A stretch of 64,000 nucleotides of DNA, taken from NCBI GenBank assembly GCA_032718475.1, contig JAUCBJ010003887.1, positions 3,839 through 67,838 of the forward strand, read 5' to 3'. The notes below the pieces were generated by a model. That model saw only the letters and a program-made list of their open reading frames with translations, was not told where the DNA came from and searched no databases. The stretch comes from Nemertoderma westbladi. Lineage: Eukaryota > Animalia > Xenacoelomorpha. This document shows positions 13,931 to 41,205 of this stretch, piece after piece. Within the stretch, counting starts at the first letter, position 1. Each line of letters begins with the position of its first letter. Both the position numbers and the translations under genes were made by a program.

Positions 13931-13980
13931 TTACCGGTCGACCGGTACTTTCAACTTTATTGCTTACTGCAATAAAGACA

Positions 13981-15205: not shown

Positions 15206-15273
15206 TCCCACAGAAGCTTATACAAAATCCTCAAAGGTAGGGAAGCAGAGATCCCATAACGATAAGGAAGTGT

Positions 15274-17159: not shown

Positions 17160-19466
17160 TGTAAGGTCCAGTAGTATACCGCTTACCAAATCCTAGTAAC
17201 GATTGTATCTTACCGTAAGATCTAGTAATGTATACGGGCTCGTACAGTATCTGACAACAAATCCCAGTCCAGGATATCTAAACAAACAGATACAATACAC
17301 AAACGACTACTGGCGAGGAACAGAGCCTAGTGTATATTCTATGTACGTGAGCGGGTCTAATGCCTACGAACTAGACGAAAGGATACCTGTCCTCTAACTG
17401 GTGAGGCAGATGTACAGTTACAGTAACAGACCAAACTCACGGGAAAACAATCCCCGCGCAGCGAATCCTAACTATCGCTGACAGTCCTAAATACCGTAAC
17501 TTGCCGCGGTTTTGTTTATATGGTTTATATACGAGCTAGTGGGTTAACAGACCTAGCGTAACAACGCTGATTCATGTCCTAAATCAGTCGAAAAGGGGTC
17601 GTGCCTAATGTAACAATAACTGATCCCCCTGTACGAAATCAGTCTAAAAGGTCAGGCCTAAATGTAACAATACTTCTGAACAGGAAGCAACAGTTTAATA
17701 ACGAAATGAAATACTCTCTCTTGGCGTAACTAAATATCAGATCCTAATTTACAAATGCAGATAATTTCTACCTAAAATAATGTATACAGTAGTGCGCTAT
17801 AGCTAGTAGAACTCTAAGGGCGAATATGTTTTAGGGCGTGTGTGTGTGGGTGTGTTACAAATAAAACAATTTTATGTATCTCTTTTACTAGGTTTTAGTG
17901 ATTTTCTGACCGAAATGATACCGTGCGCTAGCTACTAAAATAAACTAGTCGCGTTTTGTAGAACTTTATACTCACAAATGACGTCAAAGCTCTCTCCTTC
18001 CTATCCACAACTCAATGGGCAACCACGGTGTTAGTAACTACACCCGTGATCGGCACTAATACCAGATTCTGTTTGTAAGATAAGAAATAGTGGTTAATCG
18101 CTACCGTATGTTAGCTGATCTGGTATACTAATTTAATTCTAGAACTTTGTTGCCGCGGTAGTTAGCAGCAATACCTATCAGTGCGTGGCAAGGCGCGGTG
18201 GGATATTAATAAAACCTCCCTAGGCCAAGCAGTGTGCCGGTAGCAGAAATGCTCCTTGCCTGATCAAATAGCTAACTCCAGACAGGGGGGGGGGGGGGTA
18301 CTAATGTACGTTCTACAAAGCGAACCGGTACCAAACAGTCCGTACTACGAATCACTAAATTATGGAACATATGCTGTCCGTACCTATGTACTCGCGTACT
18401 GACGAATGGCAATAGTTCGCACCTGTAGGAAGTACAGGTTAACCCAGGGGTTCGCAGGACATAACAAAGGGGGGGGGGGGGTTCCTGTCTAAATGTAATT
18501 ATTTGTTCCTAAATTTGCGGCGTCCAGGACGGCGTCACGCTTACCCTGATCTATAGGTCTTAGGGCGGGCAAGGGCGTCGAACAAAGTCTTACCTTTCTC
18601 ACAAAGCGGGCGCTGCATGGCAAGTGGAGTATTTCGAAAGGCAAAGGGGGTGCGCGGTCAAATCCAATGTGGGCGCTAGCGTGTTGTGGACATCTTTCCC
18701 CTGCGTTGCTGACGGCCTAACGGTCTAGGCTGCCATCTTCCCGATGTTTGGCTGTCCCAAAGTTTGACCAAAAGAAAACATGTTCAGGAATTTGCAGTAT
18801 ATTTACAGTTTTAGCAAAGGATTTATCAAACAGATTTAACAAAGTTTCAACAAGAAACCAAATAAACTAATAACAATTTACTAAAGATACTAGCGAAGTA
18901 TAAGGTATTAGGTATTAGTGAGGGGTGTTAAGAAGGTGATAACCGAAGGCAAACCGGCCTTTTATACTAAATATCGCACATGGAAACCAAACAGAATTTT
19001 CCACAGCTTCACATTTGAGCAATAAAGTGCTTTATGCCCTATGATTGGCCCAGCTCATCGTTCAACGCAATCCGGCCCTTACACTAATCTGGGACATGGA
19101 ATCCTAACAGAATTTTCCATAGCCTCACATTTGAGCAATAAGATATTTTATGCCCCATGATTGGCCTGGCTCATCGTTCGCTACGTTGTACGCTTCTCAT
19201 TGGTCCACCAATTTGCACCAAATGAAAATAAATGGCCCCAAAATACAAATTTCCCGACCGGGATTCGAACTCGTAACCTATCTGTAATGTAACCAACGCC
19301 TTAACCATCTGACCACTACGCCACGAGAGTACCTAGGGGATTTATGTGTACAAATATGAATAGGCATATTACATTACTGTAACTTAATCAAAATGCGTCG
19401 GATTTTCGAAAGTTTTTACGTTAAAGTTAAACTACAAATGCTATCTTATAGTGAAATAATTCATCA
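17160..19466 (-). repeat. 3' LTR of element A
   Basis: Direct repeat of 34177-36485 with scattered differences. Confidence 0.96.
19251..19322 (-). ncRNA. tRNA-derived Pol III-like unit inside the LTR (second, damaged copy ~36259-36341)
   Basis: Minus strand GTGGTCAGATGGTTAAGGCG (A box-like)...GAGTTCGAATCCC (B box), followed by a TTTT run. No proper acceptor stem, so not a functional tRNA. Confidence 0.5.
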
Positions 19467-20103
19467 CCGCTCCATGAAAACAGTAAGTAAGACTGTTTTC
19501 ACCAATCGAAATATAAAATGTTTACAAACTACTTCTAAATCTACTGGTAGGGCCTAAAATATAAAATATAATCACTATCTAATTATTGCATACTTAATAT
19601 TGCAGATACGGCGTAAATACAATCGATCGTACATACAAATACAAATTTACTAATTAACTTTAGTGCCTAAAATACAAAAAAAGGCTTTCGGTTATCAAGG
19701 TAAGCAAATTAACAAATTAGATCAAGACAAATTAAAATAAATCAAACAAATAATTTCAAATCTCTTTCGATAAATCTTTACATATTGTAAATATACATAA
19801 TAAACTTCCACCAAATTAAATCAGTCTAAATATAATATAAACACAATGCGCTAATAACTTTTAAATGAGTCTTAAAGGGTCCTCTTGACGATCTTAAAAG
19901 TTCATCCTGCTGGTCTGGATATCTTCTCCTGAGCACTAATTGCTAACGGTAGGCTCGCAAGCCTTCCTTTCCATATCTCGCTCCTCCAAACCCAACATTC
20001 AAACATAATGTCCAATATAAGTATCCAAATATAATATCCAAATATAATATCCAAATATAATATCCAAATCGGTAGGCTCGCAAGCCTTCCTTCTTCTCGC
20101 TTC

Positions 20104-23100
20104 CTATTCCTTCGCTGAGCGGGCTCGTCCACGTCCTCTAGTGCGATTGGGGGGTGGTCGAGGTCGAACTGGGCTCGGACTTCGGCGTCGAGTCGTCGGT
20201 GGTTCCAAAACGCTAGGAAAGGGGATGACGGGAGTTTCGCACATCCGTCGTGCGCTCAATCCTCTAAATCCTCGTCCGATTCCAACTGTCGGCTTAACAT
20301 CGGATCGAGTCTCCACAACGCTATGAGGAAGTCGAAAGGGTGGGACTGTTCCGTCCGCTGACACCTCGCTCTCTGACGTCGTTTGAATCCTAATGGGTTC
20401 AGGCAAAGCGTATCCTGTCCCTCCGCGTGGTTCTCTAGCAAGGGAAACCGTGCCCCGAGTCATCCGGATTTGCGACTTCGATGTCGTCCTCTCGGCGACG
20501 TTTACTATCTTCTTTATCTCTTGTCGGCCTTCTGGGCTTTGAGTATACGAAATTGCTGATCATCCTGTGGATGACGCGTCTTCTCTGCTAACGGCGTGGC
20601 CTTGAAGCCAGTCTCACGCAAAACGTCGGTCTCGTCTAGAATACACGAGGTTACGCGTTTGTGATAAAATGCGCTCCGGTATGCCCAAGCTATCGAATGC
20701 CATGCTCCTCGATTCCGCTGTTCAACTCGCAGTTTATCGAATTCTCCGGCGGTAATCTTGTTCACCACAGTTTGAAAGTTCCAAGTATTCTTGTTGTCGG
20801 GGTGCACTTGTAAGAAATAGTCCCGCACAACCTTGAATCCGCTGTCCAATGGCAATATATCCAACACCTCCAACAATTCATCATACTGAGGCATAGCCGA
20901 TACATATCCTTCCTTTGACATTATGAGAGGGTTTACGGCCCAAAATCCCAAATGTGCTCTCATAGGGAAGTGGCGTCGCTGAGTCGCTACATGCTCGTCT
21001 GCTAGATCCTCCCAATGGTCGAATAATTGTCGAACGATTTTAACTGACATGTGCTCATAGGGGACGTCTCTAAGTTGACATTCGGATGCCCTATGGCCCT
21101 TAATATTACAATAAGTACACTGCGCCACGAAACGCCAGCAAGTGTAGAAAGTGTGTGAACGTTGATCTCCGCACCAGTTGCATACTAAATCCGGTAGAGA
21201 TATGTGCTTCGCTCCGCATTTCTTTGCGTGATGGCCAGTTGCTCCGCATCTGCCACAAATAGTGTTGGCAGGGTACCAAACTCGCTCATAGATGAGATCT
21301 CCGATGGGGCGAGCGCTACCGTCCACGTGATAATTCTCATCATCCGGGTCAGTCGGTATGTTCGTCTCCGTAGGTTGTACACAAACCATGGCATCGCTTT
21401 TCTCCAACTCGCGTATCTCAGTTCGCGTCTTCCTCGGAAGGTTCTCCTCTATCTCTATGAGTTGCCGTAGCGGTTCGTCTATTAGCGCCAACTCGGTCGG
21501 ATCCACATCGTCGTGATGGGCGGTAGGCTCGTGAGCCTTCCAGGATCCTTCCGGGCGTTCGAATTCCGCGTGGCTTTCGTAGGGTACTAACGTTAACATC
21601 GACGGTCTGTCGACTAGACTTCCCGCGTGAGTGAGATAGACGTCCCTGAAAACGCTAAGTCCCGCTCGCGTGAAAACTTCGCAGTGCGCATCGGTGTTAT
21701 AAAAGGGTTGGAGAAATCGTCGGAATACATCAGTATGCGTCCTTCCTCCATCGTAAAAGGTATGTCCTTCGCCAAGACATAACAGGTGTCGCTTTAGGGT
21801 TCTGGATACTACATCCGCGATGAAACAAACGTTAACCGAAGATTCTATCACTAAATAGTATTGCAAGATTATCCGCGGAGGTGAACTAATCGCCCAATAC
21901 ACGCAACCTCACCACTTCAACTGTGACTCGAACTCGTTTACGCCGGGGGTATCTCCCTCTCCGTACACGTCCGTGTATTTGCTCCTCTTACTCTCCTTGT
22001 AATCCCAACTGAACATTAGATATGAGATATAACCCGTCCCAGTTTTTAGCGTGTTATACTCCCTAAAATATCCTTGCTCAATAGCCCAAAGCAACAATGG
22101 TCTAGTATCCACGTATGGCGTAGGCAATCGGTGCTCTTCCGTGGGCATCCCTGCAAAGTCGCTAATGAGGTCATCCCGTACACCGGATCCGATCTTGACG
22201 ATGCTCTTATCCAACACAACGTCTCGCACGGCCTTTGGCAACATCCTAGCTTCTATGCTACAAGCCAGGTCCATCGATTTAACTATCCGTTTTATCATCG
22301 CGTGTCTTTGCGTCGTTCCTTCCGGCATAGGCATCTTCCTATCACTCCTCTGTCGGCTGAAGACATGTAACACGCCATCTGGTGCTCTAATCTGTATAGT
22401 CTTTGAAGTGAGGCTTTGCTGATGGCTTCCTCCTTCATTATCGTAAAACATATAACCATTATCTTTCAGAGATCGGCTAGTCACGTCCCAATCGTCGAGT
22501 AAATCGTTGGTAGGGTTCCAAATTCTCCCAATCGACTTTTCATCATCGAAACTAATAGGTTTACCGGTCCAATTGGTCGCGATATCGGTGTCGGTCTCAA
22601 ACGTTCCAACTCCGATCCATAATCGAATCGTCTTCGTCAGATATCCTCGCAAGATACAAGGTGCGATATCCGTCCCCGCGCGATCCACTTCCTTAAAGTC
22701 CGTAATATGTGGAGGCACGTTGCGTACAATTTTTTGAACTATTACTTTACGCAACTCGGCTGACTCTAACACATCACCGAAGGTAACCGATGGGAGGAAA
22801 TCCAGGTTCGAGATGATCTCCGGGTGTTCAACTATAGGGATCTCGTAAGTTGTCTCCTTCCGGGTCGGTATACTAATAGGAAAACTAGTTGGTCTCGCAA
22901 CCGGTACTATCGCTCCAGTAGAATGGGGCTGAGGTTCTCGCGTCATCTCGACATGAGGTATCTGTAGTCTCTGCGACAAACGCTGAGCAAAGGTGATACT
23001 ATCGAAGAGCTCGGGTGTCATCTCCTTGGGTTCGGTTTGATCGTGGGATATCCAATAGAATGGTAGGCTCGCGAGCCTTCCGCCGAACTCCTCGATCTCG

Positions 23101-23830
23101 CCTTTCTCGTACGCCTTGTACGCCCTGTAGAGGCTCAAAGCTTCCCGTTTCTCTTGTGTCGACTTATTAGACTCGTCCACTACCATGCTGTAGACGTCTG
23201 GTTCGACTAATTTGGGTTCGTAAATAACGATCTCGGTCCACTCATTTTAAACGAATGATACGGATTTGTCAAAGGGTATCCGCCTTCTTGGTAACGTAGA
23301 CTTTGGTGGTGTGAACATCGCGCTAATATCTGCTCGGGGTTCTCCGAGTTCAACCGCATAGGAATCGCGTTGTCTTGCTCGCGCATACACGCTCCACATT
23401 TATAAAACAGTTTGTATATGGAGAACGCGTCCTTGGTCTCTGGATCCGCTCCTCGAGCGCGTCTATAAAGATGCATTCCTTCAAATTCGTCTCTAGCTGC
23501 AGGTAAGGGTTCGTTTACCGTCAAATATTGCAGCGTATGATACAATCGGCGTATTTCGGTGTCTGGATCCTCGCAAATGTCGCTAGCATCGCATAACGCA
23601 TCGTAGGGATATAACGCATTGAACTCCGCGCATAATTCCTCCGTTCTTTTGTTGTATGCGTCCAACCGCTGTCGCGTAACATTCGGGTCCGCCTTGGATT
23701 TAGCGAGCTTGGCCGTACTCCTAGCCATACTCTCCACTCCAAACACACTAAAGTTTTTAGCTCCATAACGATTGAATGGCGCCTGGTGCTCTTGTTCTTG
23801 CGTAAACCCTTGACGTAACTCTTTATACAT
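20104..23830 (-). pseudogene. Accessory gene of A: unknown N-domain + DEDDy 3'-5' exonuclease + 3 CCHC knuckles + R/S/G-rich tail
   Basis: ORFs 23207-23830, 21909-23186, 20514-21902 and 20104-20463 are joined by one in-frame TGA and two frameshifts. Motifs FYDNEG, LPKAVRDVVLDKSIVKIGSGVRDDL, YVDTRPL, YYLVIE; knuckles CGRCGATGHHAKKC, CNWCGDQRSHTFYTC, CTYCNIKGHRASEC. Confidence 0.8.
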
Positions 23831-24580
23831 CTTCTCCGCTATCGTATACGAATATATATGTGGTTACATATCGTTACGTTTCTACTAGATGAAGCACAAA
23901 ATAGAGGTTAGATGTGAGGTGACTTAGAGTTTGTCGGCTTTTGGCTCAACTCTGCTCTAAACCCCAACCCATTTGCCTAATGATTTCGGGTTCGCGTGAT
24001 TTCGCACTGGCTCCTAATCCAAAAAATGTGCTGATAAAAAACGAATTCCGGGTAAACTAGCCGCGAGTCTAAAATACTCACCTTTTAATTTCCCATGCTA
24101 CATTCCCCAAGAAAAATAGTACAGTCGAGAATTAATTGGTCCAAATAATAGTAGACACGACTACGTAGAACAAGGCCGGTTTTCTTTTTCCAAAAAAAAA
24201 TTTATCGGTAGGCTCGCAAGCCTTCCATCCGCTCTTGTCCTCCCCAATTTTAATTTTTATCTAGCTGTATTCTAGAATTTGCTTTCACTGGAGAATCGTT
24301 TTTCTTAAATTTAAATCCATATAAATGGATTTGTCTAATAATATTTGAAAAATTGTCTCACTTGTGGGTTCCAAGTGGAATTCCATTCCTACTGTACACA
24401 CAATCCCGCTCCTATGTGATACATAAGGGTACTACCCTCCATGTTCACGTATAAAGACAATGGAATTCCACCGCTGTCTCTATCTACAGTGAAGAGGATT
24501 ACAAATGCACGTACAGTAATACAAATACAAAATAACTAAAATACAGTAAGTCTATGTGGCGGCCAACAAAGGTCCCACAT

Positions 24581-27500
24581 CTATTTACTAATATTGGGTG
24601 GAGATTTGTAGTCTCCTGTCTCGTTTCTAGTCTCCTCAAGGAGTACGAGACGTTGTACAGGTCTGTCTACGGTACGTCCGTCGATAGTCCTTACAGTAAC
24701 TGTCCTCACTACACCAGATGTAGGGTGCGTGGTCAAAATGACTCCAGTCAGCCAAAACCGTCTTTTCAGATTTGCTTCAGCCAATAAAACATGGTCACCA
24801 CGTCTTAAACATCAGGTATTTAGATACCAAGAGGTTCTGGTTGAAATAGAGGGCAAATAATATTTCTGCCATATTTCCCAGAATTTATTTGCAAGCAATT
24901 GAGTGATTTTCCAAGCCTTGTTGCCGTATCCGTCACTATCAACGGGTACCGAAATGGGCAACAATGTCGTCGGCGCCTGCATAAGCAGGTGCGCTGGTGT
25001 CAAGGCAAACTGTACGTCGTTATTGTCTGGGATCAAAGCGATCGGTCTAGTGTTTAAGATTGCTTCGATTTCTATTAGTAACGTCGTCAGTTGGTCGTCT
25101 GTCAATATGTGTTGCGTCGGTAAGACTTTAGCCATAGCTGTTTTAATTGAGCCAATCAGCCTTTCCCAAACGCCGCCTCTCCACGGACTGTCTGGAGTGT
25201 TGAAATTCCAAAAAATACGGTGAGGACGTAGTTCCTCGGAAATCTGGTTTTGGTCCAACCTTCTCAAAGCTCTGGTTATTTCGTTCCGTGAACCCACAAA
25301 GTTTGTCCCTTGGTCGCAGTAAATGGATTTGACCAATCCACGTCTAGCGACAAATCGCCGTAAGGCTAGGATAAAGGCATTGGTGGTCAAATCTGTCACT
25401 CGCTCTATATGGACAGCTCTGCTGGCCATGCAAGTGAAGATCAATCCCCAACATTTTACCTGTACCCTTCCGCGTTTCGCGATTATGGGTCCAAAACAGT
25501 CTATCCCTGTCTCAGTGTAAGGGGGTCTAAACGCCTGTAATCTAGCTAATGGTAGTTCACTCGTTTCTTGGTGTCCTATCCTCGCGTGCACCTTCTTACA
25601 AATAATACAGTTCCGTGTTACCGAACTCAGTGCCTTACTAGGTCTAATCAGTACAAACCTCGAGCGTAAGTGTGATAGACAGTGGTGTCTACCTACGTGT
25701 TTGAGTTGTACATGTGCGTCCAGTATCATAGCGCGCTGTAATTCATGGTGTTGCGGTATGATGATAGGTTACCTAAAGTCAAGTGCAAAGTCGATGTTTT
25801 GGAGTCTGGACTTGTGACAAAGTAAGCCCCTATAAATAATCGGACTCCAACTCAAAATCGGTGAAGACTTAATCTGTTTACCTTGTTTGATCGCTGTGAA
25901 TTCGCGTGCGAAATATCGCAATTGATAATGTCTAATGATATCAACTTCACAGTGGCCAACTTCCTTTGAGGTAAGTCTTCTAGGAAAGTCGCGTTTGCCT
26001 CTGGCATATTGTCTCAATCGTTTGAGCCATGCTAACTTGCGGCATGCGTCAGTCCATGATCTAGTTAGGTTCACTATCCTGTCAATGTAAGTGTTAGTGA
26101 CGTCATCAGGTAAGGTGTAGTCGTAGTGTGGATACTTGTCTGGACTTGGTAGGCCCACGGGCCTTCCGGTAGGTTTGTCTGAGTCCCCAAGTACGTCAAT
26201 CTCTACGGTCTTACCTTTACCGTCCGCACCTAATGTGTCGACTGGCAGTAACGGTTTCAACTCTACAGTATCAGTGTGTTCCTGTGAGCCTGTAAGCTTC
26301 CTAACCTTAGTCACACGCTTACCTGTAGGTGGTAAGTCAAGTACCTTCTTTGAGCGGAGTGTGATCGCTGTGGCCGCCACACCTTTGTCGTCCAAAGAAG
26401 TCAAATTCGGTAAGTCTCTAAAAGTCCGCTCCAATGGGTCTTCTAATGGAGTGTCTAATAGACAGTCTGGTGAAGCGTCCGGTGAACAGTCTGGTGAGAC
26501 GTCTGGTGAGACATAGCGCGGAACATCCGGCGAAATGTCCTGTCGTCGGTCCCAAAGTCTGTCTGGCGTAACTTCTGTCAGAAAGTCTGGTTCAAAGTCT
26601 GGTGGACAGTCTGTCGAGATGTCTGGTGGAAAGTCTGGTGAGACGTCCGGTAGACATTCTGTCGAGAGTTCCATCAAACAGTCTGGCGAACAATCCGGAG
26701 AACAATCTGGTGTCGCTTCTGGTGAATAATCTGGCGAGTAATCTGGTGAACAATCCGGCGAAACGTCTGGTGAAATCTCCTGCGGAACATCCGGCGAAGG
26801 ATTCGTACAAGCGTCTGGTCGAATGTCTGGTGAGACGTCTGGCGTAATGTCAGGTCTGGCGTCCAGGTCATCAGATTTCGTCCGTCCTTTTTTCCTCTTG
26901 ACCTTGGTGTTGGCTTTCGCTTTAGACTTGACAACCTTGTCGATTTTTATCTCGGCACCCTCTGGTATGGTGTTGGTTGTCGCGTCGAATAACAGTGGCC
27001 ATTCGTCTGATGGTCGCTGTAGGAAGTCGGGTCCTCTAAACCAAAAGGATTTATTGTCCGGTTTACAAAAGTCAAGCGGTTGCATCCCCCGTGACGCGAT
27101 GTCAGCTGGGTTCAGCTTCCCTGGACAGTGACGCCAATCTTGTTTGAGCGACCGGTCTAGTATTTCAGCCCGTCTGTTGGCTACGAAAGTCTTGAACTCA
27201 AACGCTTCATTGTTTATATACCAAAGTACCAACGTCGCATCCGTCCAATATGTGACCTTCAAGTTAGCCTCCAGCTCGCGTTGAACTAGACTGACAATAT
27301 CGGTGGATATCGTCCCGGCTTGCAGCTCCCCACGAGGTACAGTCATATACTTCAATGGCATTGTTCTAGCTCTTGAAGTAACGAGAGACACATCGTAGCT
27401 GTCCGATGTCACTTGTCGTCTAAGGTATAAAGTAACCCCCAATCCATCCTTGCTAGCGTCACTAAAGCTGTGAAGCTCTAAATCGGCAGGAAAGGTGGTT

Positions 27501-30500
27501 TGCAAAGGAAAGTATACCCTCGGTATGGTATAGTCATGTAGGAACGTCAGTTGGGCTTCCCAGTCCCTCCATCGCTCAGCTAACTTTTCTGGGATGGGGT
27601 CGTCCCATTCCAGTCCGGCTTGCCAAATGCTGTGGAGTATGATCCTAGCATGTAGGATCACTGGACTAATGAAACACAATGGGTCATACAATCGACTCAT
27701 GGTCGATAAGCAAGTCCTCTTAGTGAGAGGTCTAGTCTGGTCGTTGGACCTTACACGTACCCTAAAATTGTCGGTGTTGGGGTCCCAACTAAGTCCTAAT
27801 ACTTTGGTCGTCGGCAGAGGTTCTAGGTCTAAGTCCAAGTCACCTCCACTGCGACCCATCGGGTCAAATGAGTTCACCAGCTCTGGTTCGTTGGAAGCGA
27901 ACTTCGTCAGGTGAAATCCGCCCTCAGCGAGACAATCCTGGAGTTGGTGTGCTACGGTTGTAGCGCGCTCCAAGTTGTCACAACTCTTGAGGCTGTCATC
28001 CACGTAGAAGTCTCGTTCCACGGTCCGAACTACTTCTGGGTCAAATTGGTCTCGTCTGTCTAATGCGGTCTGCTTTAATGCGTACATGGTGCAGTTGGGG
28101 CTGTCCCTGGCTCCGAAAACTCTTACCTGCATTTGGTAAGTCTCTGGCGGAAGTTGTAAGTTTCTGTCCGGATACCAAAGAAACCTCAAGCTGTCCCTGT
28201 CCCGCTCCAAAGCCTTAACCTGGTGAAACATGGCCTCTACGTCACAGGTGAAAGCCACTTTGTGTTGTCTAAAACGCATTAGGACTCCCATGAGGTAATT
28301 GTTCATATTCGGCCCGTCCATCAGTTCGCTGTTCATAGACATCCCTTGGTAAAGCGCGGCGCAGTCGTTGACTACACGCACCTTGCCAGGTTTGTCCGGG
28401 TGTCGAACAAAATGATGTGGCAGGTAATATGTCTGGTCTGTGGTTACCTCGGGATTTAACATCCTAATGGCGTACCCCTTTTGGAGATACGTCTGAAGTT
28501 GTGCATTGTATTGCAAATGGGCCGTCTCATCTCGCAACAATCGCTGCCTTATTGATTTGAGTCGCCTCAAAGCAAGCGGGTAATTGTTAACGAGCTTAGG
28601 TTGTCCATTGCGCCACAACATACTAACCTCATAGTGGCCATTCGCGGTCTGGCGAATGGTATCTCTCATAATATTTAATGACCGTTTTTTCTGTTCTGAC
28701 ATAGCGGTCTCGTAACTACCGGGTTCTGCTGAGTCCTGTTCCAACCATTGAATGGTCCGTTCAGTCAGCAGTCGGTCTAGCGCTGCTTGCACTGCGCCAT
28801 GGTCCTCGTCCACGTCTTCGTCCGCTGCGGTGGCTAGTGTCAAGGTGTCTGGTAGGCTCGCAAGCCTTCCGGTGTCACTAGTCGGCGTCGAATCGTCGTG
28901 CGGCGGTTTGACAACTTCTTGATCTATTGGTAGGCTCGCAAGCCTTCCAAGATCAACGACCGGTGTCGAAGCCTGGTGGGTGGGGTCAATGACCTTCGGA
29001 TTTTTCGGTAGGCTCGCAAGCCTTCCAAAATCCTCATTCATCGAGTCATCCACGGCAACAACCCTTTGGTCTTCAGTAGTCAATACAACCTGGTCTACTG
29101 CAAGTAGTTGTAAGTCAGAGGTCCGTATGGTCATGTCCAGATCGGTTACGTCAGTATCGGTGGCGTCTGCGTTAGCGACGCAAGTCTGTCATAGTGCCGT
29201 CCGTACAATTGGACCACAGGAGTGTGAAGGAGAATTATCTATCGTGTTAGTCAATAAACTACACGTACTCAAAACATCGTCCTCCTGGTCACTTACCTCT
29301 AGTGAACGTATTGGTGCTCTAGTATACCAACCTATGGGAGTTCTACATGCGTAGGGGTTGCCCGCTGTAATAACAGATGGGCGTGTCTCCCACACCTGAT
29401 GTAAGTTAAACTGGTCTGTCCCAATTAACATCGCAATGGAACGATAATTAACAGGACATTCCGGTATTCCAAGGTGTCGGAAATACTTACGATCTTCCGG
29501 TGATTGCTCTGGCACAGGGCCGAGCAAGTTACTAAAGTCCTTCGTAGCTGCAAAGGTCAAATTTCTTACCAGAAGTAATGAGCGCTCCTCCTTGCTGTGT
29601 TCCGCTTTGGAAAGAAGAGTGTCTAAAGTTAGTTTTACTCTCGTCACAGGGATCGCTCTCTTACCATGCATGCTGCTTACAGTATACTGAGCAGTCTTAC
29701 CTTGACTCATGTCCGTAACTACGTCGGCTACTTGTTCGTCGACATAGCTATGTGATGACGCAGAGTCTAAGATGGCGTATATACGCTTGCTTCCTCGGGT
29801 TCCGGTAATCTTTATAGGAATCACACTAAACCCTTTCAGTTGGTTCTGTGTGAGGAGCGTTATCGAAGGCTGTTCCTCACCTGCATGCACGTAGAAAGTG
29901 TCGTCTTCCTCCTCGTCCTCGTCCGATGATCCTGACTGATCCATACAGTCTGTATAAAAGGTACGGATCTCGCGCGGCGCACGCTCCTTGTAAAGCGCGT
30001 CGCATCTAGCCGCTTTATCTGGATGCTCTCGTCGAAAGCGTCTGGTCGGAGTATGACTGGTTGTGTGAAGCAACGCGTCATGGTTACGTCCACACAGAGA
30101 ACATGTATCGTCGCTCGAGCAATCCTTCCGGACGTGTCCTGGCTTCATACATCTCCAGCAGGAATCTACAGATCGGATTTGGAGTCTCCTCTCCTCGATC
30201 CCCAACTCTTTAAAAGCGCGACATCCGCGTAGTTTATGTCCGCTGTAGTTTCTGCCGTTCCGCTCGCAGTATGAGCATCCCACAAAGTCCGCCGGCAACT
30301 GTTGTCGTGGCTGCGTGGTGCCGATAGGCGTCAGAACTTTAGAAGTCTCAATAGGGGTGGCGTAAGTAACGGCTTTCGCGTTCGTCGGAAGTGGTTTAGT
30401 CCGAATTGGCGCAGAAATAGCTATCCCTTCCGCCGCGATATGGTGATCGGTATAGTTCGATCGAGTCTCGATCACGGCCTCCCGTGAAATCAGTTGATAG

Positions 30501-33145
30501 ACATCGGTGAGTTTTAATAACCCTCCGGCCTCTTTGCGCTGGTACTCGATGCTTCGCCATTCTCGTCGTAGTCGATGGTGAAGTCGACCGATTATTCGAA
30601 TGAGAACCGTTGGTGCGTTAGCGTACTCGAGTTGTCCAATGGACCGCAAAGTCCCTATAGCGTTCTTGATTTCGTCCGCGAGTCGTAAAAGGTCGATCGG
30701 TTTCGAAATGTTGCCTCCTCTGCAGAGGTCTTCAATAATGGATTTAGCCATGGCGACGTTACCTCCGTAAATCGAATATAAACGGTCGTACGCCAACTCA
30801 AAGGCATCGGGAACACCAATGAAGGTTTCCGCTAATCGTTTCGGCTCACCAGACAGAACTTGGAGCAAGTAATTAAACTTCTCCGTCGAGGTGAAAGCAC
30901 ACTTAGCGATCTGGGACTCTACATAGTCTACCAGTGTGCGCCAGTGTTTCGCGTTGCCAGAGAACTTCGGCGGTTGCTGTGCCGGTAATCCGTGTCTAGC
31001 CGCGAATTTCGCAATCTCGCTAACTAAGTCCAACTGTCCGCGTCCCTGTTCGGCGGCGTCGTCCAGTCGCTCCCTTCCGCGCGTTGTTCGTCGGTAAGAA
31101 TTATTAATGGGATCTTCTTCTCGATGTGTCGGAGTCTGTCTAGTCTCCTGTTCTCTCCTTGGTGGTCGATATTGTCTAGGTTGTTCCAACTCCACGCTGG
31201 TTCGAGATCGATCCGACGGTTGCGCTTCGAGTCGTTCTTCGAGTTGAGCTATTCTGTCCGTCATCTCGGTGAACTGTTTGGCGCTGATCGTTTCCGCTGG
31301 TTTCAACGTGGGTTTCTGTTGGGGTGTTTCTCGAGGTGGATTGTCGATGTATGGATTTGTCGACATCTCCTCTCGTTTGTAATCCTCCGCCGCTCCAGTA
31401 CGGAATATTTCCCGTTCCGTCGACTCCGAGTCACTAGATGAGTCGCTGTCGTCCGGATAAGGTGGCTGGCGGGTTCGTGTCCGGCGTATTATTCTTGGTC
31501 TCGTCCGTTGTGGTCAGGGATCTACGGCTCTCCGTTGTTCGGTAGGCTCGCAAGCCTTCCACGAAGTCGTAGGTCTCGTTATACGTTGTCCGATCCCGTG
31601 GGTACTACCCACATCCATCCTCCTCCGTAGTTCGGTAGGCTCGCAAGCCTTCCACGAAGTCGTAGGTTGCGTCGAACATTGTGTCAACGGTCGAGTGAAA
31701 TAGTCGGGTTTCGTAGTCGGTCTATAAATAACTGGATTCGCACAGCACGTCACAGGTTTAACTTGTAATGGTTTACTCACCTGTTTAATGGTCATAAACG
31801 CAGGTTCCTCTCTTCCTACAAGTAGACTACGACTTACTGTAGGTGGGCTAGTTATGTTACCTGCTAAAATTGGCGATGAAGTCGCCCTAGGTTGCGGTAT
31901 TTCCGTCACAACAAACCTGTTGCCTTGCGTCGAACGCACAGGCGTTATTTCCTTAGGTTTCGTAACAAAGACCGGTTTTATCGGAGTCGCGGGTTTGAGC
32001 ATAGGAATAACTTGGGGAAAACGTTTACAGTAATCCTCGACGAACTCTTCTCCTCGCTCTATCGCTCCCACACTTCCTTCCTCGATTCGCTTCTGTATTC
32101 CGCGATATCGAGCTTCCATACGATCCAGGGCAGACAAGTCGTGTCCAGCTCGCGTTCTTATAGATCTATCTCTCGCGTCGAGTTCAAGGTCCGCTTGCGC
32201 ATTCGCTGCCTCGCGCGATCTACGATTAAATTTGAACTGTAGTTGCATCTCCCTTTCGCGTCGATCTGCTACTTGTTGTTGTGCCGCTAACTCCGCTTCC
32301 TGTATAGCTAAACGTGATTTTATTTGCCGTGCCTCCTACTGAGCGTCAGATGCCTCTTTCAGTCGTGTTAAGTCCTCCTCTAATCTTCTCAATTCGGCGC
32401 TTTCGACTTCGGCTTGCGCCTTGAGTTGCGCAATTTTCGTTTCGTCTTCTCTACGTTGTTTCTCTCCCTCGATAGCAATCTGTGCCATATGGTGTTGCGC
32501 TTCTTCCTCGGCGACTTGTTGTCTGCGTGCAACCTCCTGTTGTTGTCGAGTAATTACAGACGATGTCCTACTAACGTCGCCAACGTCACTCCGCATGCTA
32601 ACGAACGATCTATCCAGAGGTGGATGCTGGTAGGCTCGCGAGCCTTCCGTAGTGAGAACTTCCGTTATCCCTCGCGGTTCGACTTCCGGTTCGTCGATCG
32701 GTACGCCGCATCTACGAAGAAAATTGGTGAGCGTTTCCAACCTCCCGTCCAGGCAGTAGAGTTCTTCTTCCTCTTCGGGTTGTAACAACGCGTCCGAAAC
32801 TGACTCACCTAGCAGTTGGTCGAACTGCTCCTGTTGAGCCAATCTTATCACCGACTTAAACTGGATAAGGCTTTCTCTCGCACTTACCAACTTGTCTATT
32901 ATCTTTACCTGAGTAAAGTTATCGCCACGCAACTCTGCAAGTTCGTGTAAACCTTTAAGTTTATCTACGGAGGCATGTACCCTACTTTCTATCCTTACCT
33001 GTAAGGTGTAGAACTCGTATCTCGACATCGGGGCGGTTAACTCGCGTAAAACGCGAAAACCTTCTCCAAGGTTCCGAGTAATCTGGGCCATGTGTCCTCC
33101 TATACTCCTAATAACGTTCTCCTGGCTTCCAGTCGAACTTACCAT
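24581..33145 (-). pseudogene. Single-frame gag-pol of element A (2855 codons, 5 premature stops)
   Basis: All ORF pieces share one frame. Gag knuckles, protease ILDSAS, RT DFYVDD, RH FSDAS/YWTDA/NPADIASRG, integrase H-H-C-C plus GIDCFGP, CDQGTNF, GGVWE. Confidence 0.95.
26455..26860 (-). repeat. Degenerate 12-bp coding tandem repeat (SPDV/SPDC) in the RH-IN linker of A
   Basis: Runs of TCTGGTGAGACG-like units. Confidence 0.85.
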
Positions 33146-34165
33146 GTCCGGTTCCCTTACGTTATATACGTCAAGTACGGGTAATAAAATGTCAAAGTGT
33201 CTGAATGTTGAAGTGTCAAACTTACCTTGGTATATATAATATATATATACCCTAACCGGTACAAATAAATCAACAAAGTCAGAATGTCGAAATGTCAAAA
33301 TGTCAAAATGTACGAATGTCAAACTTACCTTGATATATATATATATCATATATATACCCTAACCGGTACAAATAAACTAACAAAGTATACAATAAAATAA
33401 GTAATAATCTAGCCTACCGGCCAAATTTGTACGAATAAATGAGATAACGGTATACGTTACCAAAATATAGATCAACAAGTACAAATAATAGGCAAAACAG
33501 CAAAGTCTAACGGGAAAATAAGTACCAACAACACTACTAATAGACAGTGAAACCCACAAATTTTGAGTACTACTGTGCTTTCTTAAGTTTGAACGACGCG
33601 AGTCGTAAAACTTACGTTCCTTTGATCTTCCAGTCGTGCAAATTCCCAAATACAAACCGGACGTGGGTCGTTCCGTTTTTCGGCGGCGCGGACGAATTTA
33701 TTGTCTCCCAAACTTTGCGAAAAGCGGTCTAATCCTCGAAGCGGTCCAGAAATGAGTCCTTGAGTCCTGAAAAGATCGAAGGTGAGAGTTTTACTTCTAC
33801 GCTACGAAAGGTCTTCCTAGGTACCGATACAAATTGGTCTTTAAACCCTATGTACCTTTTCAAGTACCGAAAGTAACACCGCACACACATGGCGTAAAAC
33901 AAAATGCTACAAACTAACTATTAGCTAGTCAAATATTAAATACGAAAGTACTAGCTACCCTAAAAGCCTACTGAAGCAGGGGACGTTCTAAATTACTAAA
34001 TTTACTAACCTTAAATTTTAAATATCTCCTACTTTCAATAGCTAACAGATCTAAATAATACTATACACTAATTTCAGAATTTGTATAATAATACTTCTTA
34101 CTGTTGTAGTGCGCACGCACTACAAAGCGTACAGATCTAAACAATACTATACACTAATTTATATA

Positions 34166-34176
34166 GTACTTCCTAC
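34166..34176 (-). promoter_or_regulatory. Non-tRNA primer-binding site of A (GTAGGAAGTAC)
   Basis: Flush with the 5' LTR end TTACA; no TGG; exact complement inside the LTR at 35437-35447 (18425-18435 in the 3' LTR). Confidence 0.7.
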
Positions 34177-36485
34177 TGTAAGGTCCAGCAGTATACCGCT
34201 TACCAAATCCTAGTAACGATTGTATCTTACCGTAAGATCTAGTAATGTATACGGGCTCGTACAGTATCTGACAACAAATCCCAGTCCAGGATATCTAAAC
34301 AAACAGATACAATACACAAACGACTACTGGTGAGGAACAGAGCCTAGTGTCTATTCTATGTACGTGAGCGGGTCTAATGCCTACGAACTAGACGAAAGGA
34401 TACCTGTCCTCTAACCGGTGAGGCAGATGTACAGTTACAGTAACAGACCAAACTCACGGGAAAACAATCCCCGCGCAGCGAATCCTAACTATCGCTGACA
34501 GTCCTAAATACCGTAACTTGCCGCGGTGTAATTTATATGGTTTATATACGAGCTAGTGGGTTAACAGACCTAGCGTAACAATGCTGATTCATGTCCTAAA
34601 TCAGTCGAAAAGGGGTCGTGCCTAATGTAACAATAACTGATCCCCCTGTACGAAATCAGTCTAAAAGGTCAGGCCTAAATGTAACAATACTGCTGAACAG
34701 GAAGCAACAGTTTAATAACGAAATGAAATACTCTCTCTTGCCGTAACTAAATATCAGATCCTAATTTACAAATGCAGATAATTTCTACCTAAAATAATGT
34801 ATAGTGCGCTATAGCTAGTAGAACTCTAAGGGCGAATATGTTTTAGGGCGTGTGTGTGTGGGTGTGTTACAAATAAAACAATTTTATGTATCTCTTTTAC
34901 TAGGTTTTAGTGATTTTCTGACCGAAATGATACCGTGCGCTAGCTACTAAAATAAACTAGTCGCGTTTTGTAGAACTTTATACTCACAAATGACGTCAAA
35001 GCTCTCTCCTTCCTATCCACAACTCAATGGGCAACCACGGTGTTAGTAACTACACCCGTGATCGGCACTAATACCAGATTCTGGTTGTAAGATAAGAAAT
35101 AGGGGTTAATCGCTACCGTACGTTAGCTGATCTGGTATACTAATTTAATTCTAGAACTTTGTTGCCGCGGTAGTTAGCAGCAATACCTATCAGTACGTAG
35201 CAAGGCGCGGTAGGATATTAATAAAACCTCCCTAGGCCAAGCAGTGTGCCGGTAGCAGAAATGCTCCTTGCCTGATCAAATAGCTAACTCCAGACAGGGG
35301 GGGGGGGGGGTACTAATGTACGTTCTACAAAGCGAACCGGTACCAAACAGTCCGTACTACGAATCACTAAATTATGGAACATATGCTGTCCGTACCTATG
35401 TACTCGCGTACTGACGAATGGCAATAGTTCGCACCTGTAGGAAGTACAGGTTAACCCAGGGGTTCGCAGGACATAACAAAGGGGGGGGTTCCTGTCTAAA
35501 TATAATTATTTGATCCTAAATTTGCGGCGTCCAGGACGGCGTCACGCTTACCCTGATCTATAGGTCTTACGGCGGGCAAGGGCGTCGAACAAAGTCTTAC
35601 CTTTCTCACAAAGCGGGCGCTGCATGGCAAGTGGAGTATTTCGAAGGGCAAAGGGGGTGCGCGGTCAAATCCAATGTGGGCGCTAGCGTGTTGTGGACAT
35701 CTTTCCCCTGCGTTGCTGATGGCCTAACGGTCTAGGCTGCCATCTTCCCGATGTTTGGCTGTCCCAAAGTTGGACCAAAAGAAAACATGTTCAGGAATTT
35801 GCAGTATATTTACAGTTTTAGCAAAGGATTTATCAAACAGATTTAACAAAGTTTCAACAAGAAACCAAATAAACTAATAACAATTTACTAAATATACTAG
35901 CGAAGTATAAGGTATTAGGTATTAGAGAGGGGTGTTAAGAAGGTGATAACCGAAGGCAAACCGGCCTTTTATACTAAATATCGCACATGGAAAACAAACA
36001 GAATTTTCCACAGCTTCACATTTGAGCAATAAAGTGCTTTATGCCCTATGATTGGCCCAGCTCATCGTTCAACGCAATCCGGCCCTTACACTAATCTGGG
36101 ACATGGAATCCTAACAGAATTTTCCATAGCCTCACATTTGAGCAATAAGATATTTTATGCCCCATGATTGGCCTGGCTCATCGTTCGCTACGTTGTACGC
36201 TTCTCATTGGTCCACCAATTTGCACCAAATGAAAATAAATGGCCCCAAAATACAAATTTCCCGACCGGGATTCGAACTCGTAACCTATCTGTAATGTAAC
36301 CAACGCATCTGTTCCACTACGCTCTATCTGACCACTACGCCACGAGAGTACCTAGGGGATTTATGTGTACAAATATGAATAGGTATATTACATTACTGTA
36401 ACTTAATCAAAATGCGTCGGATTTTCGAAAGTTTTTACGTTAAAGTTAAACTACAAATGCTATCTTATAGTGAAATAATTCATCA
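34177..36485 (-). repeat. 5' LTR of element A
   Basis: TGATG...TTACA on the minus strand; upstream of gag. Confidence 0.96.
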
Positions 36486-39045
36486 GTCTGACTTAGAGTG
36501 GGACGAGCCAATATCCGCTATACATGCAAAGCAGTGGAGAGAGTGGGAAGCCGAGTTGCATCTATTGAAAAATATAGATGTACCCCACTCCTACTTTCCG
36601 AATCAGCTGGTATTCCCAGCTGATCTACAACTGCATTTATTTAGTGACGCAAGTGATACCGGCTTTGGTATGGTAGCCTACCTTTGCCGAGAGGTAAGTC
36701 AGGATAAGTTTGAGACGGCCTTTGTGACTTCTAGATCAAAGACAATGCCGGTCAAATACATGACTGTCCCTTGTGCTAGTACCTTGTGCGGTAGTATCGG
36801 TTGAGGTGAGTAAGCAGATAATAGAGGAGTTAGACACGACCTTGACATTATTCTATTGGACGGACGCATCCTTAGTGTTAGTGTATATTGCAGCTGACAA
36901 TATTGCACTAAAGATATTTGTAGCCAACAGACGCGCTCAGATCGTTGAGTTTTCAATGAAGGAACAATGGAGACATTGTCGGGGAGTGTTAAACCCGGCT
37001 GACATAATTTCGAGAGGTGCTATGCCGGCGGAACTCTGTCAAGAAGAATCCCAGGAGTTTTGGTTACATGGACCGGATTTTCTAACAAGGACACAGGGAC
37101 ATTGGCCAGAGCGACTGAAGATCGTTACCAATCCGATGCCGATAGATGCAGAGGTCAAAGTGGAGAAAGTTTCCAAGTCTAAGTCGAAAGCCAAACTCGA
37201 GTCATTGGAGCGGCCTGAAGAGTCATTGGAGCAGCCTGAAGAGTCATTGGAGTGGCCTGAAGAGTCATTGGAGCGGCATGGAGACCTGTCAGACCAAGAG
37301 ACTTATGTGACTACAAGGTCCGGAAGAGTAAGTTATGACATAAAACCATCCTTACAGACTACACAAGGGTCACAATTAGTAAGTGACGGACAGAAAATGA
37401 CCAACAAGATGGAACCTTCGGTTTCCAAACCTGCGGGTTTGGATTCGAAACTTCCATTGGCTAGTGGGCAACTGTCGCTGGCGTTAGAGCCACGTAGTAT
37501 TTATGACAAATTACTAAATTCGTCCGCCTCTTGGCTGACAATTTGTAAAAGAACCGCGTGGTTAAGCCAATATGTTTCTTTCCTTTGTTTGAAACGTACA
37601 AAGCATTTAGGAGAACAAATGAGCACTAATAGTGAGCGGATTCAGAAATTGAAACAACCTCTTACAGAGGATGAGATTGATCAAGCGGAATTAAAGCATT
37701 TGAGACATTATCAAATGTGTGCCTTCCCAAAGGAATTCTATCTGTTATTGGTTCAACGACCAGTTCTCTATAAACCCCTCAAAAAATGGAGTCCATTGAT
37801 ACATAAGGGTTTGATTTTTCATAGATCAAGAATCCAGACTGTTGACATCACCCAATAGAATTACAAAGAGCGATTCTGTGGGATATACATAAGAGGCTAC
37901 ATCACGCGGGAAGGTTACACTGTTTCTCGGCAGCGAGACAGTGATTCATTCTGTTGCAGTCAAGCAGGGCAGTAGGTATCATGTACAACGCCTGTCTGGT
38001 TTGCAAGAGAGTGTACGCCAGAGTATTGGAACAGGAGATGGCTGAACTCCCGGAAGCAAGAGTGCAGGCATATGACCTACCCTTCATAAATACAGGAGTG
38101 GACTGTTTTGGCCCGATTGAGGCAACGAGTGGACGGCTGATGCACAAGAGATGGGGCCTGCTACTGATATGTATGGCAAGTAGAGCCGTACACATAGAGC
38201 GTGTGGCAGACATGTCGACCAAATCTCTGTTCCTGGCCTTAAAGAGATTTATGGCCAGGAGAGTACTAGTAAAGGCGTTCTTCTCCGACAAGGGTACAAA
38301 CTTTGTCAGAGGGGATAGTGAGTTGAAGCGGCTCACGGCGCAGAACAAAGAAATCTCTGCAGCACTTTTGCCGCAAAGAGTCGAGTGGAGGTTTAATACC
38401 CCAGAAAGTCCCTGGAGAGGAGGAAGTTAGGAGCATCTGGTTCGCTCCATAAAACAGGCCATAGCAAAAACATTGCCTGTAAATAAACAACTAACGGACG
38501 ACGAGTTGGTAACAGCTTTCATCAAAATCAAGCATACTTTAAACTCGAGGCCGATAGCTATGTTGCCCGACGGTGTTGCATTAACACCAAATCACCTGCT
38601 TATGCAGAGTCCAGCATTTCTTGTGCCGGCATCAGAACCCATTAGTTCCGACCTATATTGTCGAAAAAGCTGGAAAATTACCCAGTTTATAGCGTACACA
38701 TTCTGGGAATATTGGCGGGAATATTACCTTCCCACAATATCCACCAGAGCTAAGTGGTACAAAACAGTCCGGAGCCTCCAAAGAGGAGACTACGTATTAA
38801 TAACCGAACCAGTGATAAAGAGAAAATACTGGGAAACCGGCGTAATCTTGCACGTACACCCGGATGTACAAAATATAGTATGCACCATCACTGTAAAAAT
38901 AAGGTACAAGTGTCCGAACAAAAAGAAGTGTAAAACTAAGGGTTTTCACACTTTGGACAGGCCAGTCCAGGATATTGTGTTACGAGAAGAAACACGCATC
39001 GAGACAGGAGACTATAATTTGTCTTCTGCCTCAAAACAAAATTAG
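36486..39045 (+). pseudogene. RNase H-integrase of element B
   Basis: FSDAS, YWTDAS, NPADIISRG, GVDCFGP, SDKGTNF, LDRPVQDIVLRE; several stops and frameshifts; 21-bp ESLEQPE repeat at ~37199-37278. Confidence 0.92.
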
Positions 39046-39882
39046 TGTCAGAACGCAAATTCACTTTGTGTGCATTCCTCGTATGCAAATACTCGGAAAT
39101 ACATAGGAGCGGATTTGAGGTGAAATGCGTTGATAATTTGTCTGGTGGGTATCTAAACAAAATTAAATTTTTTCATAAAGTTTGGAAAATTCAAATTTAA
39201 AAAAATAAAAGTTGAACCCAAGACAATTCCAATGCTAAATATAGACGCGTTCGAGAACCTATCTATAAGTACAGTAATTTGAAAGTCGTGAGAGCCTGGA
39301 AAATAGTACCTAGACACCATGGTTATGGCTATATTATGTAGGAGTGTAAATTGAGTTCAGTAACTTCCACAGATTGGTGCCAACAGTACTACAACCAAGG
39401 TGCTAAAGGTTAGTAGCCCCAGAGGCGTACACAGACCCCACTCAGTAGTTTGTAGTGGAGAGAGGTGTTCGATTATCAAACCTGCAGGTTTGGTATAGTC
39501 GAGCGCCCTAGTTAATGTCCTTTCTAACCACTGTAGTCTAGTACAAGTATTGGGGAGTAGTTTGGGCATCAAAAAGTGAATCGGCCACGGCCAGTTTATC
39601 TCCAAAGTTTTTGCGCTATGCATGGGAATAAGTTAGAAGGTAGTTAAGAATGAGACGGGATCTAGAAAGCCGAACCTGAACTTCTGGAAGGCGGGCTTGG
39701 TAGCTCGGGATGTCTATCCCTCCGTACTATCTAACTGATCCACCCACAGTATAATTAGCTTACGTCATAGACCATTTGGAATATATATACATATAATACA
39801 CGCAAATGAAGAAGGACGTCTGTCCATCCGTCTGTATTCAAGTGGGTGCGCCTTGGGGAGGAACCCAGACGGATGAAAGCGG

Positions 39883-41205
39883 ATGGAGCTAAATGGGAAA
39901 TATAAACCCACTTACGACAAGGAATTGAGGAGAGAAAGATGGCGAGCATTTGGAGATCGTATGGAGGTGTTACGACGGGAATACCGGACTCGATATCCCT
40001 ACGACTTCGCCCTCGACGTGTGCGATATCAGCACCGACCCTGAAGAGGAAATAGCGCGCTTGTATCATATGAATATGTATTTGTCGCACGATGAACCTCT
40101 ACCTGCCGTCCGAGATCAGTTCGAAGGGATGCATCTTTACCGGAGGACCCGAGGCAGGGACGAGGAGACACCGAAGGTTTTCAGCATATATAAGTTGTTC
40201 TACAAATGCAGCGAGTGCATGAATAAACAAGACGTAGCATCCCCAACCGACTGAACAAGTTGAACCCCAAACCGATATTAACGCGGTGCCAAGCTCATCA
40301 GTTTCTTATAAATAACGAGGGAGGTTACCCGATGAATAATCCTATGATCAGCATTGACTTTAGCGGAAAGCGACCTCCGAGACCTATTATGTCGACCGTT
40401 ATGACATTGGACCTGTATATGGAGATTAAACCCTGTTCTACACCCGCTTTGACAGAAACGGTGGCGGCCATTTTGCTTTACCGAGCCTTTTGCCTCACCG
40501 GGAGAGGAAGCTCACGCCTGAGTATCCAGATGAGGTAAAAATACGACACGAAAAGACAACGCAAGCTGTTCCGACATCCAATAGAATCGCGCCATCCATC
40601 CGTCTACTAACTATACCCACGATCCGCGATTTATACAATATTTTTCTCCAAATTGTTTTGGGAAGTTTCGACGCACGCTTTATTAATTCCAAATATGTCC
40701 AATCCTTTATATATCATCGTTGCTCTGATATATACATCTTGATTTATTGCCCAGCGCACAATTGGCGGCCTAAGGAGACTCGTTTGGGGTCATTGACCAC
40801 TGAACGGGTGGAGGAGCAACAGACCACTGCGCCCACAGAAATAACAGCCAGAGCCCATAGCTTGCGGCAAGGACCAGAAGGATTAGTGCTTGGCAAGCGT
40901 CAAGCCAAGGACGAGCAGTTTCATGCCATGCGCAACGCGTGCAACGTAAGGCAAAAGGTGCATCCTAAAGGGCGCGAGTGCAGTTGCTGAAAAAGGAGTT
41001 GGCGGGGGCGCCTGCAGGGACACGGCATCTGGGACGAGGCCGAGGGAGGAGTACCAGCCGGGAGATAGTTGGGGCCCAGGGAACGTCGTCGCCGGTTCCG
41101 GGAAGTGACGCCTCATGGACGCCGTCAACAGACTGGTGTATCTGGGGAGGGGACGGAAGAGAGGAGCGAGCCCGAGAGACCCAGGAGCTAGCCAATGGGC
41201 GATAA
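39883..41205 (+). pseudogene. Accessory gene remnant of element B (N-domain and RG tail; no exonuclease seen)
   Basis: YPYDFALDVCDISTDPEEEIARLYH...EPLPAVRDQFEGMHLYRR...FSIYKLFYKC aligns with A YPYDALCDASDICEDPDTEIRRLYH...EPLPAARDEFEGMHLYRR...FSIYKLFYKC. Confidence 0.85.

Follow-up and report, generated by a model that had tools for sequence, protein, structure and literature searches.

A 19.3-kb BEL/Pao retrotransposon of Nemertoderma westbladi with an LTR-complementary primer-binding site, a family-specific hairpin array and an exonuclease-like accessory gene

Can a BEL/Pao retrotransposon start reverse transcription from its own RNA instead of a tRNA, and can it mark that RNA with a structural tag of its own? 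Both questions are raised by element A, a 19,326-bp BEL/Pao retrotransposon (36485 to 17160, minus strand) in a 64,000-nt stretch of Nemertoderma westbladi contig JAUCBJ010003887.1 (GCA_032718475.1, positions 3,839-67,838 of the forward strand), called the window here. Positions are those of the window, and all features of A lie on its minus strand. Element A is real and unusual and represents a new variant within BEL/Pao. It has 5' and 3' long terminal repeats (LTRs) with TG..CA ends at 34177..36485 (2309 bp) and 17160..19466 (2307 bp), which are 97.9% identical (31 substitutions and 22 gap columns), a polypurine tract (PPT) at 19467..19476, and a flanking 5-bp target-site duplication (TSD), CAGAC, at 36486..36490 and 17155-17159; its insertion target was the RNase H region of a second BEL/Pao element, B (37426..41409, plus strand). 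The gag-pol gene (24583..33358) encodes DUF1759, zinc knuckles, protease, reverse transcriptase (RT), RNase H/Peptidase_A17, integrase and DUF5641, and Pfam recovers DUF1759 (3e-10), Peptidase_A17 (9e-40), RVT_1, Integrase_H2C2 (the integrase zinc finger) and DUF5641. This domain set in gag-PR-RT-RH-IN order, together with the LTR ends, TSD and PPT, places A in BEL/Pao, and the initial annotation was right in describing a TSD-bounded member with 2.3-kb LTRs. The RT/RNase H part matches 1088 of 7992 scored proteins at E<=1e-60, these being BEL-type polyproteins, with the best matches 39-44% identical and cnidarian, echinoderm or mollusc where named. In a tree of the RT piece comprising A, B and the closest 44 of 120 database sequences, A and B group together with support of 100/99 against the 44 database RTs. 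The gag-pol frame is single as far as 24812 and is interrupted by five in-frame stops, and the accessory gene that follows it carries one stop and two frame changes; A, although recently inserted, is therefore defective. Short contigs 85-99% alike to A in one sequencing run indicate that related copies exist, although these contigs are unable to show RNA starts, ends or expression.

To see what might mark the RNA of A, we turn to the hairpins of its interior. Between 19948 and 32648, a 20-nt hairpin containing an internal A-A mismatch occurs 12 times, with 5' ends at 32648, 31653, 31560, 29026, 28948, 28870, 26167, 24226, 23081, 21541, 20090 and 19967. A scan of the window at up to five mismatches returned these 12 sites, the number given by the initial annotation; 8 are exact, all are between A's LTRs, and all 12 match best on the sense strand. 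At three mismatches, none of 100 shuffles gave any site. Nine of the copies fall within open reading frames (ORFs), spread over three reading frames, and three lie outside coding sequence, which rejects a protein motif as their origin. Shared flanks occur in only 2 of 66 pairs, so that a by-product of tandem duplication is rejected for most copies. The stem sequence is nearly invariant, the loop contains a CpG, and no copy is found in the LTR promoter. The sense-strand A-A mismatch is kept in every copy, and the copy at 26167 carries a compensatory pair change.

Element B has a hairpin family of its own, as had been claimed for relatives in the window. It consists of three plus-strand copies at 37426, 39477 and 41394 with a 6-bp stem and a YGCN loop (TGCG, TGCA and CGCT), where 0 of 1000 shuffles reach even two copies. 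The positions match those in A: the B hairpin at 37426 is the first base of an alignment block that begins at A copy 26167; the one at 39477 is separated from pol by 432 nt and from the accessory ORF behind it by 400 nt, compared with 357 and 363 nt for A's 24226; and the one at 41394 lies 386 nt before the PPT, compared with distances of 494 and 617 nt in A, where the matching copies are 20090/19967. Positions and loop type thus match between A and B and the stems differ. This comparison, which we consider the strongest new result, suggests from the sequences a family-specific RNA signal. The strand bias, the common YGCN-type loop and the compensatory change likewise argue for an RNA signal rather than a DNA site of the type bound by the VANC proteins of VANDAL transposons, and we consider it likely that the hairpins are cis-acting RNA signals. 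Whether their reader would be the accessory zinc knuckles rather than Gag is a closer matter, on which we lean slightly against the accessory knuckles. No hairpin family of this kind was seen in two further repeat fragments of the window, C and D (described below), and a search of viral contigs gave 0 matches; the one metagenome locus found (L001; 57% GC, single copy, no element homology) was judged a chance match.

The ICTV profile of the Belpaoviridae gives an 18-nt tRNA-Arg/Gly primer-binding site (PBS) (PMC8742986). In A, the 11 nt at 34166..34176, which adjoin the CA of the LTR, lack a TGG start and, judged by this start, do not form an 18-nt host-tRNA PBS. Instead, they have an exact complement within each LTR (35447-35437 in the 5' LTR and 18435-18425 in the 3' LTR; LTR position 1039-1049), and the match ends at the LTR border. 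The complement was found in 10 of 20,000 shuffled LTRs, and 12 of 14,685 internal positions of A reach 11-nt complementarity to the LTR; the chance of the observed match is about 5-8e-4. It lies at the centre of a 7-bp hairpin (35433..35451, identical in the 3' LTR), the LTR's only inverted repeat of at least 7 bp with a 3-7 nt loop. The 11-nt self-complementary, non-tRNA PBS of the initial annotation therefore holds for A, in both LTRs, whereas its recurrence in relatives was not confirmed. Comparison with the Tf1/Sushi group shows a PBS that is complementary to the LTR and directly follows U5 in A as well, together with an RT that is not of the Gypsy/chromovirus type; A thus behaves as a self-priming element without belonging to that group, and it probably primed from its own RNA instead of a tRNA. 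Two further observations concern this site. A degenerate second PBS copy occurs at ~34101, inside an 86-nt leader duplication, and the PBS and its complement (34163-34179 and 35433-35451) can each be folded into hairpins with complementary 5-nt loops, in which a kissing-loop start is possible in the modelled structures; the PBS hairpin is weak (-1.7 kcal/mol).

To place the 11-mer on the transcript, we considered the motifs of the LTR. A Pol II promoter-like set at 35940..36212 comprises CCAAT boxes at 36210, 36171 and 36055 and a TATAAA at 35973 (LTR 513), pointing to a putative transcription start near 35944 (LTR ~540), ~500 nt upstream of the PBS complement; ATTAAA words occur at LTR 1337 and 1770. 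If transcription starts near LTR 540 and ends beyond LTR 1340, the 11-mer would be in R and hence at both ends of the RNA. In long folds of the uncut RNA, the predicted PBS pairing is 0.00 for a start at 35944 and 0.03-0.07 for a start at the 11-mer. Scanning the 3' end, we obtained a predicted pairing of 0.01-0.04 with 4-17 extra nucleotides beyond the 11-mer, 0.13 with 3, and 0.87-0.89 with 0-2, dropping to at most 0.36 when the RNA is shortened into the 11-mer. In this model, the pattern is consistent with trimming of the 3' end up to a protected duplex; an RNase H cut would leave the identical end.

Based on these features, the reading that we put forward, tentatively, is that A makes an exonuclease-trimmed self-primer and tags its RNA with hairpins. 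Exonuclease trimming to a PBS-protected 11-mer had already been one model of the initial annotation, and the internal, hairpin-locked position of the complement together with the predicted pairing lends it further support. An element-encoded 3'-5' exonuclease would digest the 3' copy of R from its end, come to a halt at the 7-bp hairpin and work its way into the hairpin's 3' arm; once released, the 11-mer would pair with the PBS and become protected, leaving a 3'-OH exactly at the U5 border, and ~500 nt of 3' R would be left over for the first strand transfer. The twelve hairpins would act as family-specific RNA tags for the element-encoded zinc-knuckle protein. A wider and more speculative form of this proposal is a giant BEL/Pao lineage with a third priming route, in which an element-encoded exonuclease shortens the genomic RNA from its 3' end as far as a hairpin-gated 11-mer, the primer at the PBS, and the knuckles recognise their own RNA by a family-specific hairpin code evolving jointly with the protein.

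The candidate exonuclease belongs to the accessory gene (23863-20104; 3.76 kb), which follows pol and is not env. Its N-terminal domain (23207..23863) is 52% identical to the product of 39877-40373 in B. This is followed by a predicted DEDDy/EXD2-like 3'-5' exonuclease region (21800..22500, with the stop at 21911-21909), three CCHC-type zinc knuckles (21078..21257) and, in another frame, an Arg/Pro/Ser-rich C-terminal part with a basic tail (20104..20559). DEDDy enzymes carry DxE in Exo I, D in Exo II and YxxxD in Exo III. The corresponding residues of A are D 22442 and E 22436 (Exo I), D 22172 (Exo II) and a YxxxE at 21857-21843 (Exo III). A homologue of the region is encoded by an open, 400-aa orphan ORF (55193..56395, minus strand) in fragment D, with no pol beside it; A and the orphan ORF (56395-55196) are 24% identical over 204 aa (E 7e-8), and both keep DxE, the D after a KxG motif, and YxxxE. 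In the ESM Atlas, 25 of the 30 matches to the orphan ORF are PF01612 (3'-5' exonuclease) clusters (0.91). A two-sequence profile of A and the orphan aligns human EXD2 at E values of 0.72 and 1.9, over LP..KVG..D and in the expected register, and the Exo II assignment is anchored on this EXD2 alignment. It thus seems likely that the accessory region has an exonuclease fold; on whether the predicted enzyme is catalytically active we are nearly evenly divided, with a slight inclination against it.

The initial annotation had proposed a ~3.7-kb exonuclease/knuckle gene that recurs in diverged relatives. Its length, three knuckles, exonuclease motifs and a homologue in the window are borne out, whereas Pfam, HMMER and fold comparison give the exonuclease assignment no support; as to recurrence, the N-terminal domain is present in B, and the exonuclease-like domain recurs in the orphan ORF without pol. 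The accessory gene of B is decayed and contains no exonuclease or knuckle remnant. Database searches for this gene were otherwise negative: the N-terminal domain had no usable ESM Atlas match, and its profile confirmed 0 of 428 pattern matches in metagenome contigs; protein searches with the exonuclease and knuckle parts returned no matches; and none of 120 database relatives carries the accessory domains in the same protein, a count that does not cover separate ORFs.

Several observations weigh against the trimmed-primer and hairpin-tag proposal. On the protein side, the exonuclease region has no Pfam match at E<=10, no HMMER match among 1.84 billion representative sequences at E<=0.001 and no PDB sequence match, and its structure models (pLDDT 40 and 34) were too poor to use and gave no Foldseek match. 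The Atlas match is to the orphan ORF and not to A, and has 161 shared features, below the 170 typical of family members. Exo III is YxxxE, not YxxxD, which makes the activity of A's exonuclease uncertain. On the RNA side, the start and poly(A) sites are read from motifs, the 3'-end scan is an equilibrium model of short fragments, and A's hairpins, taken singly, do not exceed shuffles in stability (z -1.0 to -1.6, four tested). The PBS complement is known from one element, A: fragments C and D gave AT-rich 9-10-mers or nothing, the 5' end of B is outside the window, and D, the element that carries the orphan ORF, has no PBS complement. Moreover, B lies on a long branch (1.77) in the RT tree. 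Finally, the bdelloid elements that carry DEDDy ORFs acquired them late and family by family, according to the available text of PMC5408684, which argues against an essential role in replication.

Among the alternatives, a Tf1-like cut by RNase H has about the same likelihood as exonuclease trimming. In such a scheme, which we hold equally tentatively, the PBS would be paired with the 5' copy of R, from which the RNase H of the element would cut the primer; packaging, localisation or small-RNA shielding would be the task of a separate ribonucleoprotein module made up of the accessory protein and the hairpins, possibly with a catalytically weak EXD1- or Maelstrom-like fold. The geometry is shared with Tf1, in which RNase H cuts between bases 11 and 12 (PMC7175516), and self-priming has more than one origin, with cases in Gypsy and Copia (PMC6317226); the non-canonical Exo III and the bdelloid DEDDy ORFs, which appear as dispensable add-ons in the part of that literature available, point the same way. 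On the other hand, the Tf1 complement is the RNA's initial 11 bases, whereas A has no TATA upstream of its 11-mer and its promoter motifs lie 500 nt earlier. For uncut A RNA, no PBS pairing is predicted, and an RNA starting at the 11-mer would omit the 5' arm of the 7-bp hairpin. A different and unlikely explanation is that the 11-nt match arose by chance and that a host RNA, a tRNA fragment or other, primes A, so that only the hairpin/accessory module is special. There is a single instance of the match, matches of at least 11 nt also follow other CA dinucleotides in the window, and half-tRNA priming exists in Copia (PMC6317226). Against chance stand the position of the PBS, fixed beforehand by the LTR end, the low probability of the match at that position, and the centring of the complement in the LTR's only 7-bp hairpin.

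The hairpins and the accessory protein invite other explanations as well. The initial annotation had proposed that the knuckles read the hairpins in an anti-silencing logic, of which the family-specific code is supported by B, whose hairpins occupy matching positions with a stem of their own. In a VANC-like version, the accessory protein would bind the 20-mer as an imperfect palindrome in proviral DNA and keep the provirus unmethylated or transcribed. VANC targets are likewise family-specific, fast-changing motifs, as far as the accessible part of PMC5735166 describes them. The nearly invariant stem and the CpG in the loop also fit DNA binding, as does a CpG observed/expected ratio of 1.18 inside A versus 0.62 at 43-53 kb, yet B too is without strong CpG loss (0.87). 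However, all of the hairpins point the same way, their A-A mismatch is on the sense strand, and there is a compensatory change; the loop is kept where the stem differs between A and B; and none is in the LTR promoter, with 9 of 12 in coding sequence. Zinc knuckles and exonuclease folds, moreover, bind single strands. We therefore regard a VANC-like DNA site as quite unlikely, the evidence favouring an RNA signal. Least probable of all, in our view, is the third model of the initial annotation, in which the exonuclease would serve to proofread a very long genome's cDNA or to process its ends. A is about twice the stated maximum size of its family, and DEDDy enzymes act on single-stranded DNA, with end-processing proposed for Dada transposons in the available portion of PMC3706591. 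No direct evidence speaks for this role, however, and small bdelloid elements also carry DEDDy ORFs; the larger LTR elements Ogre and Burro are described without a DEDDy gene in the part of PMC6431247 available.

How, then, does A compare with known systems? Its domain set and order, TG..CA LTRs, PPT and 5-bp TSD are those of BEL/Pao (Semotivirus). That family is described as 4.2-10 kb long with LTRs of 0.2-1.2 kb, sizes that are typical and not defining (PMC8742986 and, in its available part, PMC3118150), whereas A is 19.3 kb with 2.3-kb LTRs, no 18-nt tRNA PBS and a third gene that is not env. A PBS complementary to the LTR is shared with Tf1/Sushi, Tj1 and Tcn1 (Gypsy) and TAR (Copia), and its 11 nt with Tf1; in Tf1 the RNA opens with the 11-nt complement, which RNase H cuts, whereas in A, of another superfamily, the complement appears to be ~500 nt internal and hairpin-locked. 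The accessory gene can be likened, by description, to the DEDDy ORF3 of bdelloid Juno/Vesta (Gypsy-type) and of Terminons, for which 3'-end RNA processing was suggested (PMC5408684 and PMC6431247, from their available text); DEDDy exonucleases also occur in some Dada transposons (PMC3706591, likewise in part). According to these partial sources, the bdelloid elements resemble A in a non-env ORF3 after pol, an RNase D-like exonuclease and an altered catalytic motif (DEED there). They differ in their Gypsy-type and PLE hosts and LTRs of 159-551 bp, and the available text of PMC5408684 does not mention a knuckle triad, hairpin array or self-priming. VANC/VANDAL resembles A in an element-encoded accessory protein with family-specific, fast-evolving repeated motifs; as the accessible part of PMC5735166 has it, these are plant DNA transposons with DNA targets in non-coding tandem repeats, in contrast to the dispersed, strand-biased and mostly coding hairpins of A.

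With respect to novelty, the combination had been thought undescribed. Self-priming, an exonuclease or a hairpin array was not found in the BEL/Pao literature searched (including PMC554778, PMC6238403, PMC13524379 and the accessible part of PMC3601003), a search whose scope excluded the Cer-element papers, Repbase, Dfam and GyDB, which may list the family; DEDDy ORF3 and self-priming are each known separately. Since LTR elements with an exonuclease ORF3 have been described before (bdelloid Gypsy; PMC5408684, in part), A is a new combination in a new superfamily and not a system from scratch. If real, a self-priming lineage would add one more independent origin to tRNA-free priming, tRNA priming being part of the formal definition of the Belpaoviridae, and the use of a trimmed 3' end as primer would constitute a novel route. 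The DEDDy ORFs of several unrelated mobile elements, a role for which has been sought since 2017, would also gain a first concrete function. The hairpin families of A and B offer a testable case of an LTR element telling its own RNA from that of its relatives. Within BEL/Pao itself, the Cer7-type elements of C. elegans reportedly have an RNase D-like accessory domain, and some Cer elements are said to encode a tRNA-like primer; if so, an exonuclease in BEL/Pao would not be new by itself.

The LTR of A also holds the Pol III-like unit noted by the initial annotation. A tRNA-like A-box/B-box unit followed by T4 lies in U3 at 36257..36348 (LTR 138-229), with the boxes at tRNA spacing and an arrangement reached by 5 of 5000 shuffles. 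The boxes are thus beyond chance, whereas no tRNA gene is called at default thresholds: ARAGORN gives 0 at its default and Rfam none, and ARAGORN calls appear only at -ps80, with differing anticodons in the two LTRs. T4 runs directly after the boxes, at LTR ~240, would end the transcript ~800 nt before the PBS complement, so the unit cannot supply the primer and was rejected as its source. The unit is probably a U3 relic derived from a tRNA or a SINE, and no such unit was found in the 3' LTR region of B. Two 118-bp repeats, with one CCAAT box apiece, also lie in U3 (35953-36186).

Further observations concern A and its neighbours. At 26440-26880, a 12-nt tandem repeat in A encodes a Pro/Asp/Cys-rich insert between RNase H and integrase, and B has a 21-nt repeat at the matching place. 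A PPT-like word follows directly after pol in A (24412, minus strand) and B (39106, plus strand) and after the pol remnant of C (7586, minus strand), and in A a PBS-like word lies 18 nt beyond it; the PPT-like word may represent a central PPT, or else a scar left by tandem fusion to a D-like unit. Fragment D (53700-56900, minus strand), in which the orphan exonuclease-like ORF follows a PBS look-alike (56709) at a distance of ~300 nt and precedes a BEL-like PPT and TG (~53755), has no pol and is possibly a small non-autonomous LTR element that carries only the exonuclease-like gene; its PBS look-alike (56709-56699) was rejected, having no upstream complement. An RT search for relatives of A in viral contigs gave 0 matches. 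A 3.5-kb duplication (1751-5265 and 13992-17506, 99.7%) comprises part of B and the last 347 bp of A's 3' LTR, and the BEL fragment C (5266-13991, minus strand) lies between its copies. At 5266-5330, a 33-nt LTR copy with micro-repeats resembles a templated repair junction, and after the pol of C an unrelated ORF remnant (5340-5977, minus strand) has Cys/His motifs and no Pfam match. Between 43000 and 64000 lie a DDE_1 transposase piece and three non-LTR RT ORFs (44093, 47387 and 63879). The same interval holds nested repeats (48900-52060), an inverted-repeat element (60465-61353) and an ORF of 246 aa (60240-59500), whose end appears cadherin-like by eye.

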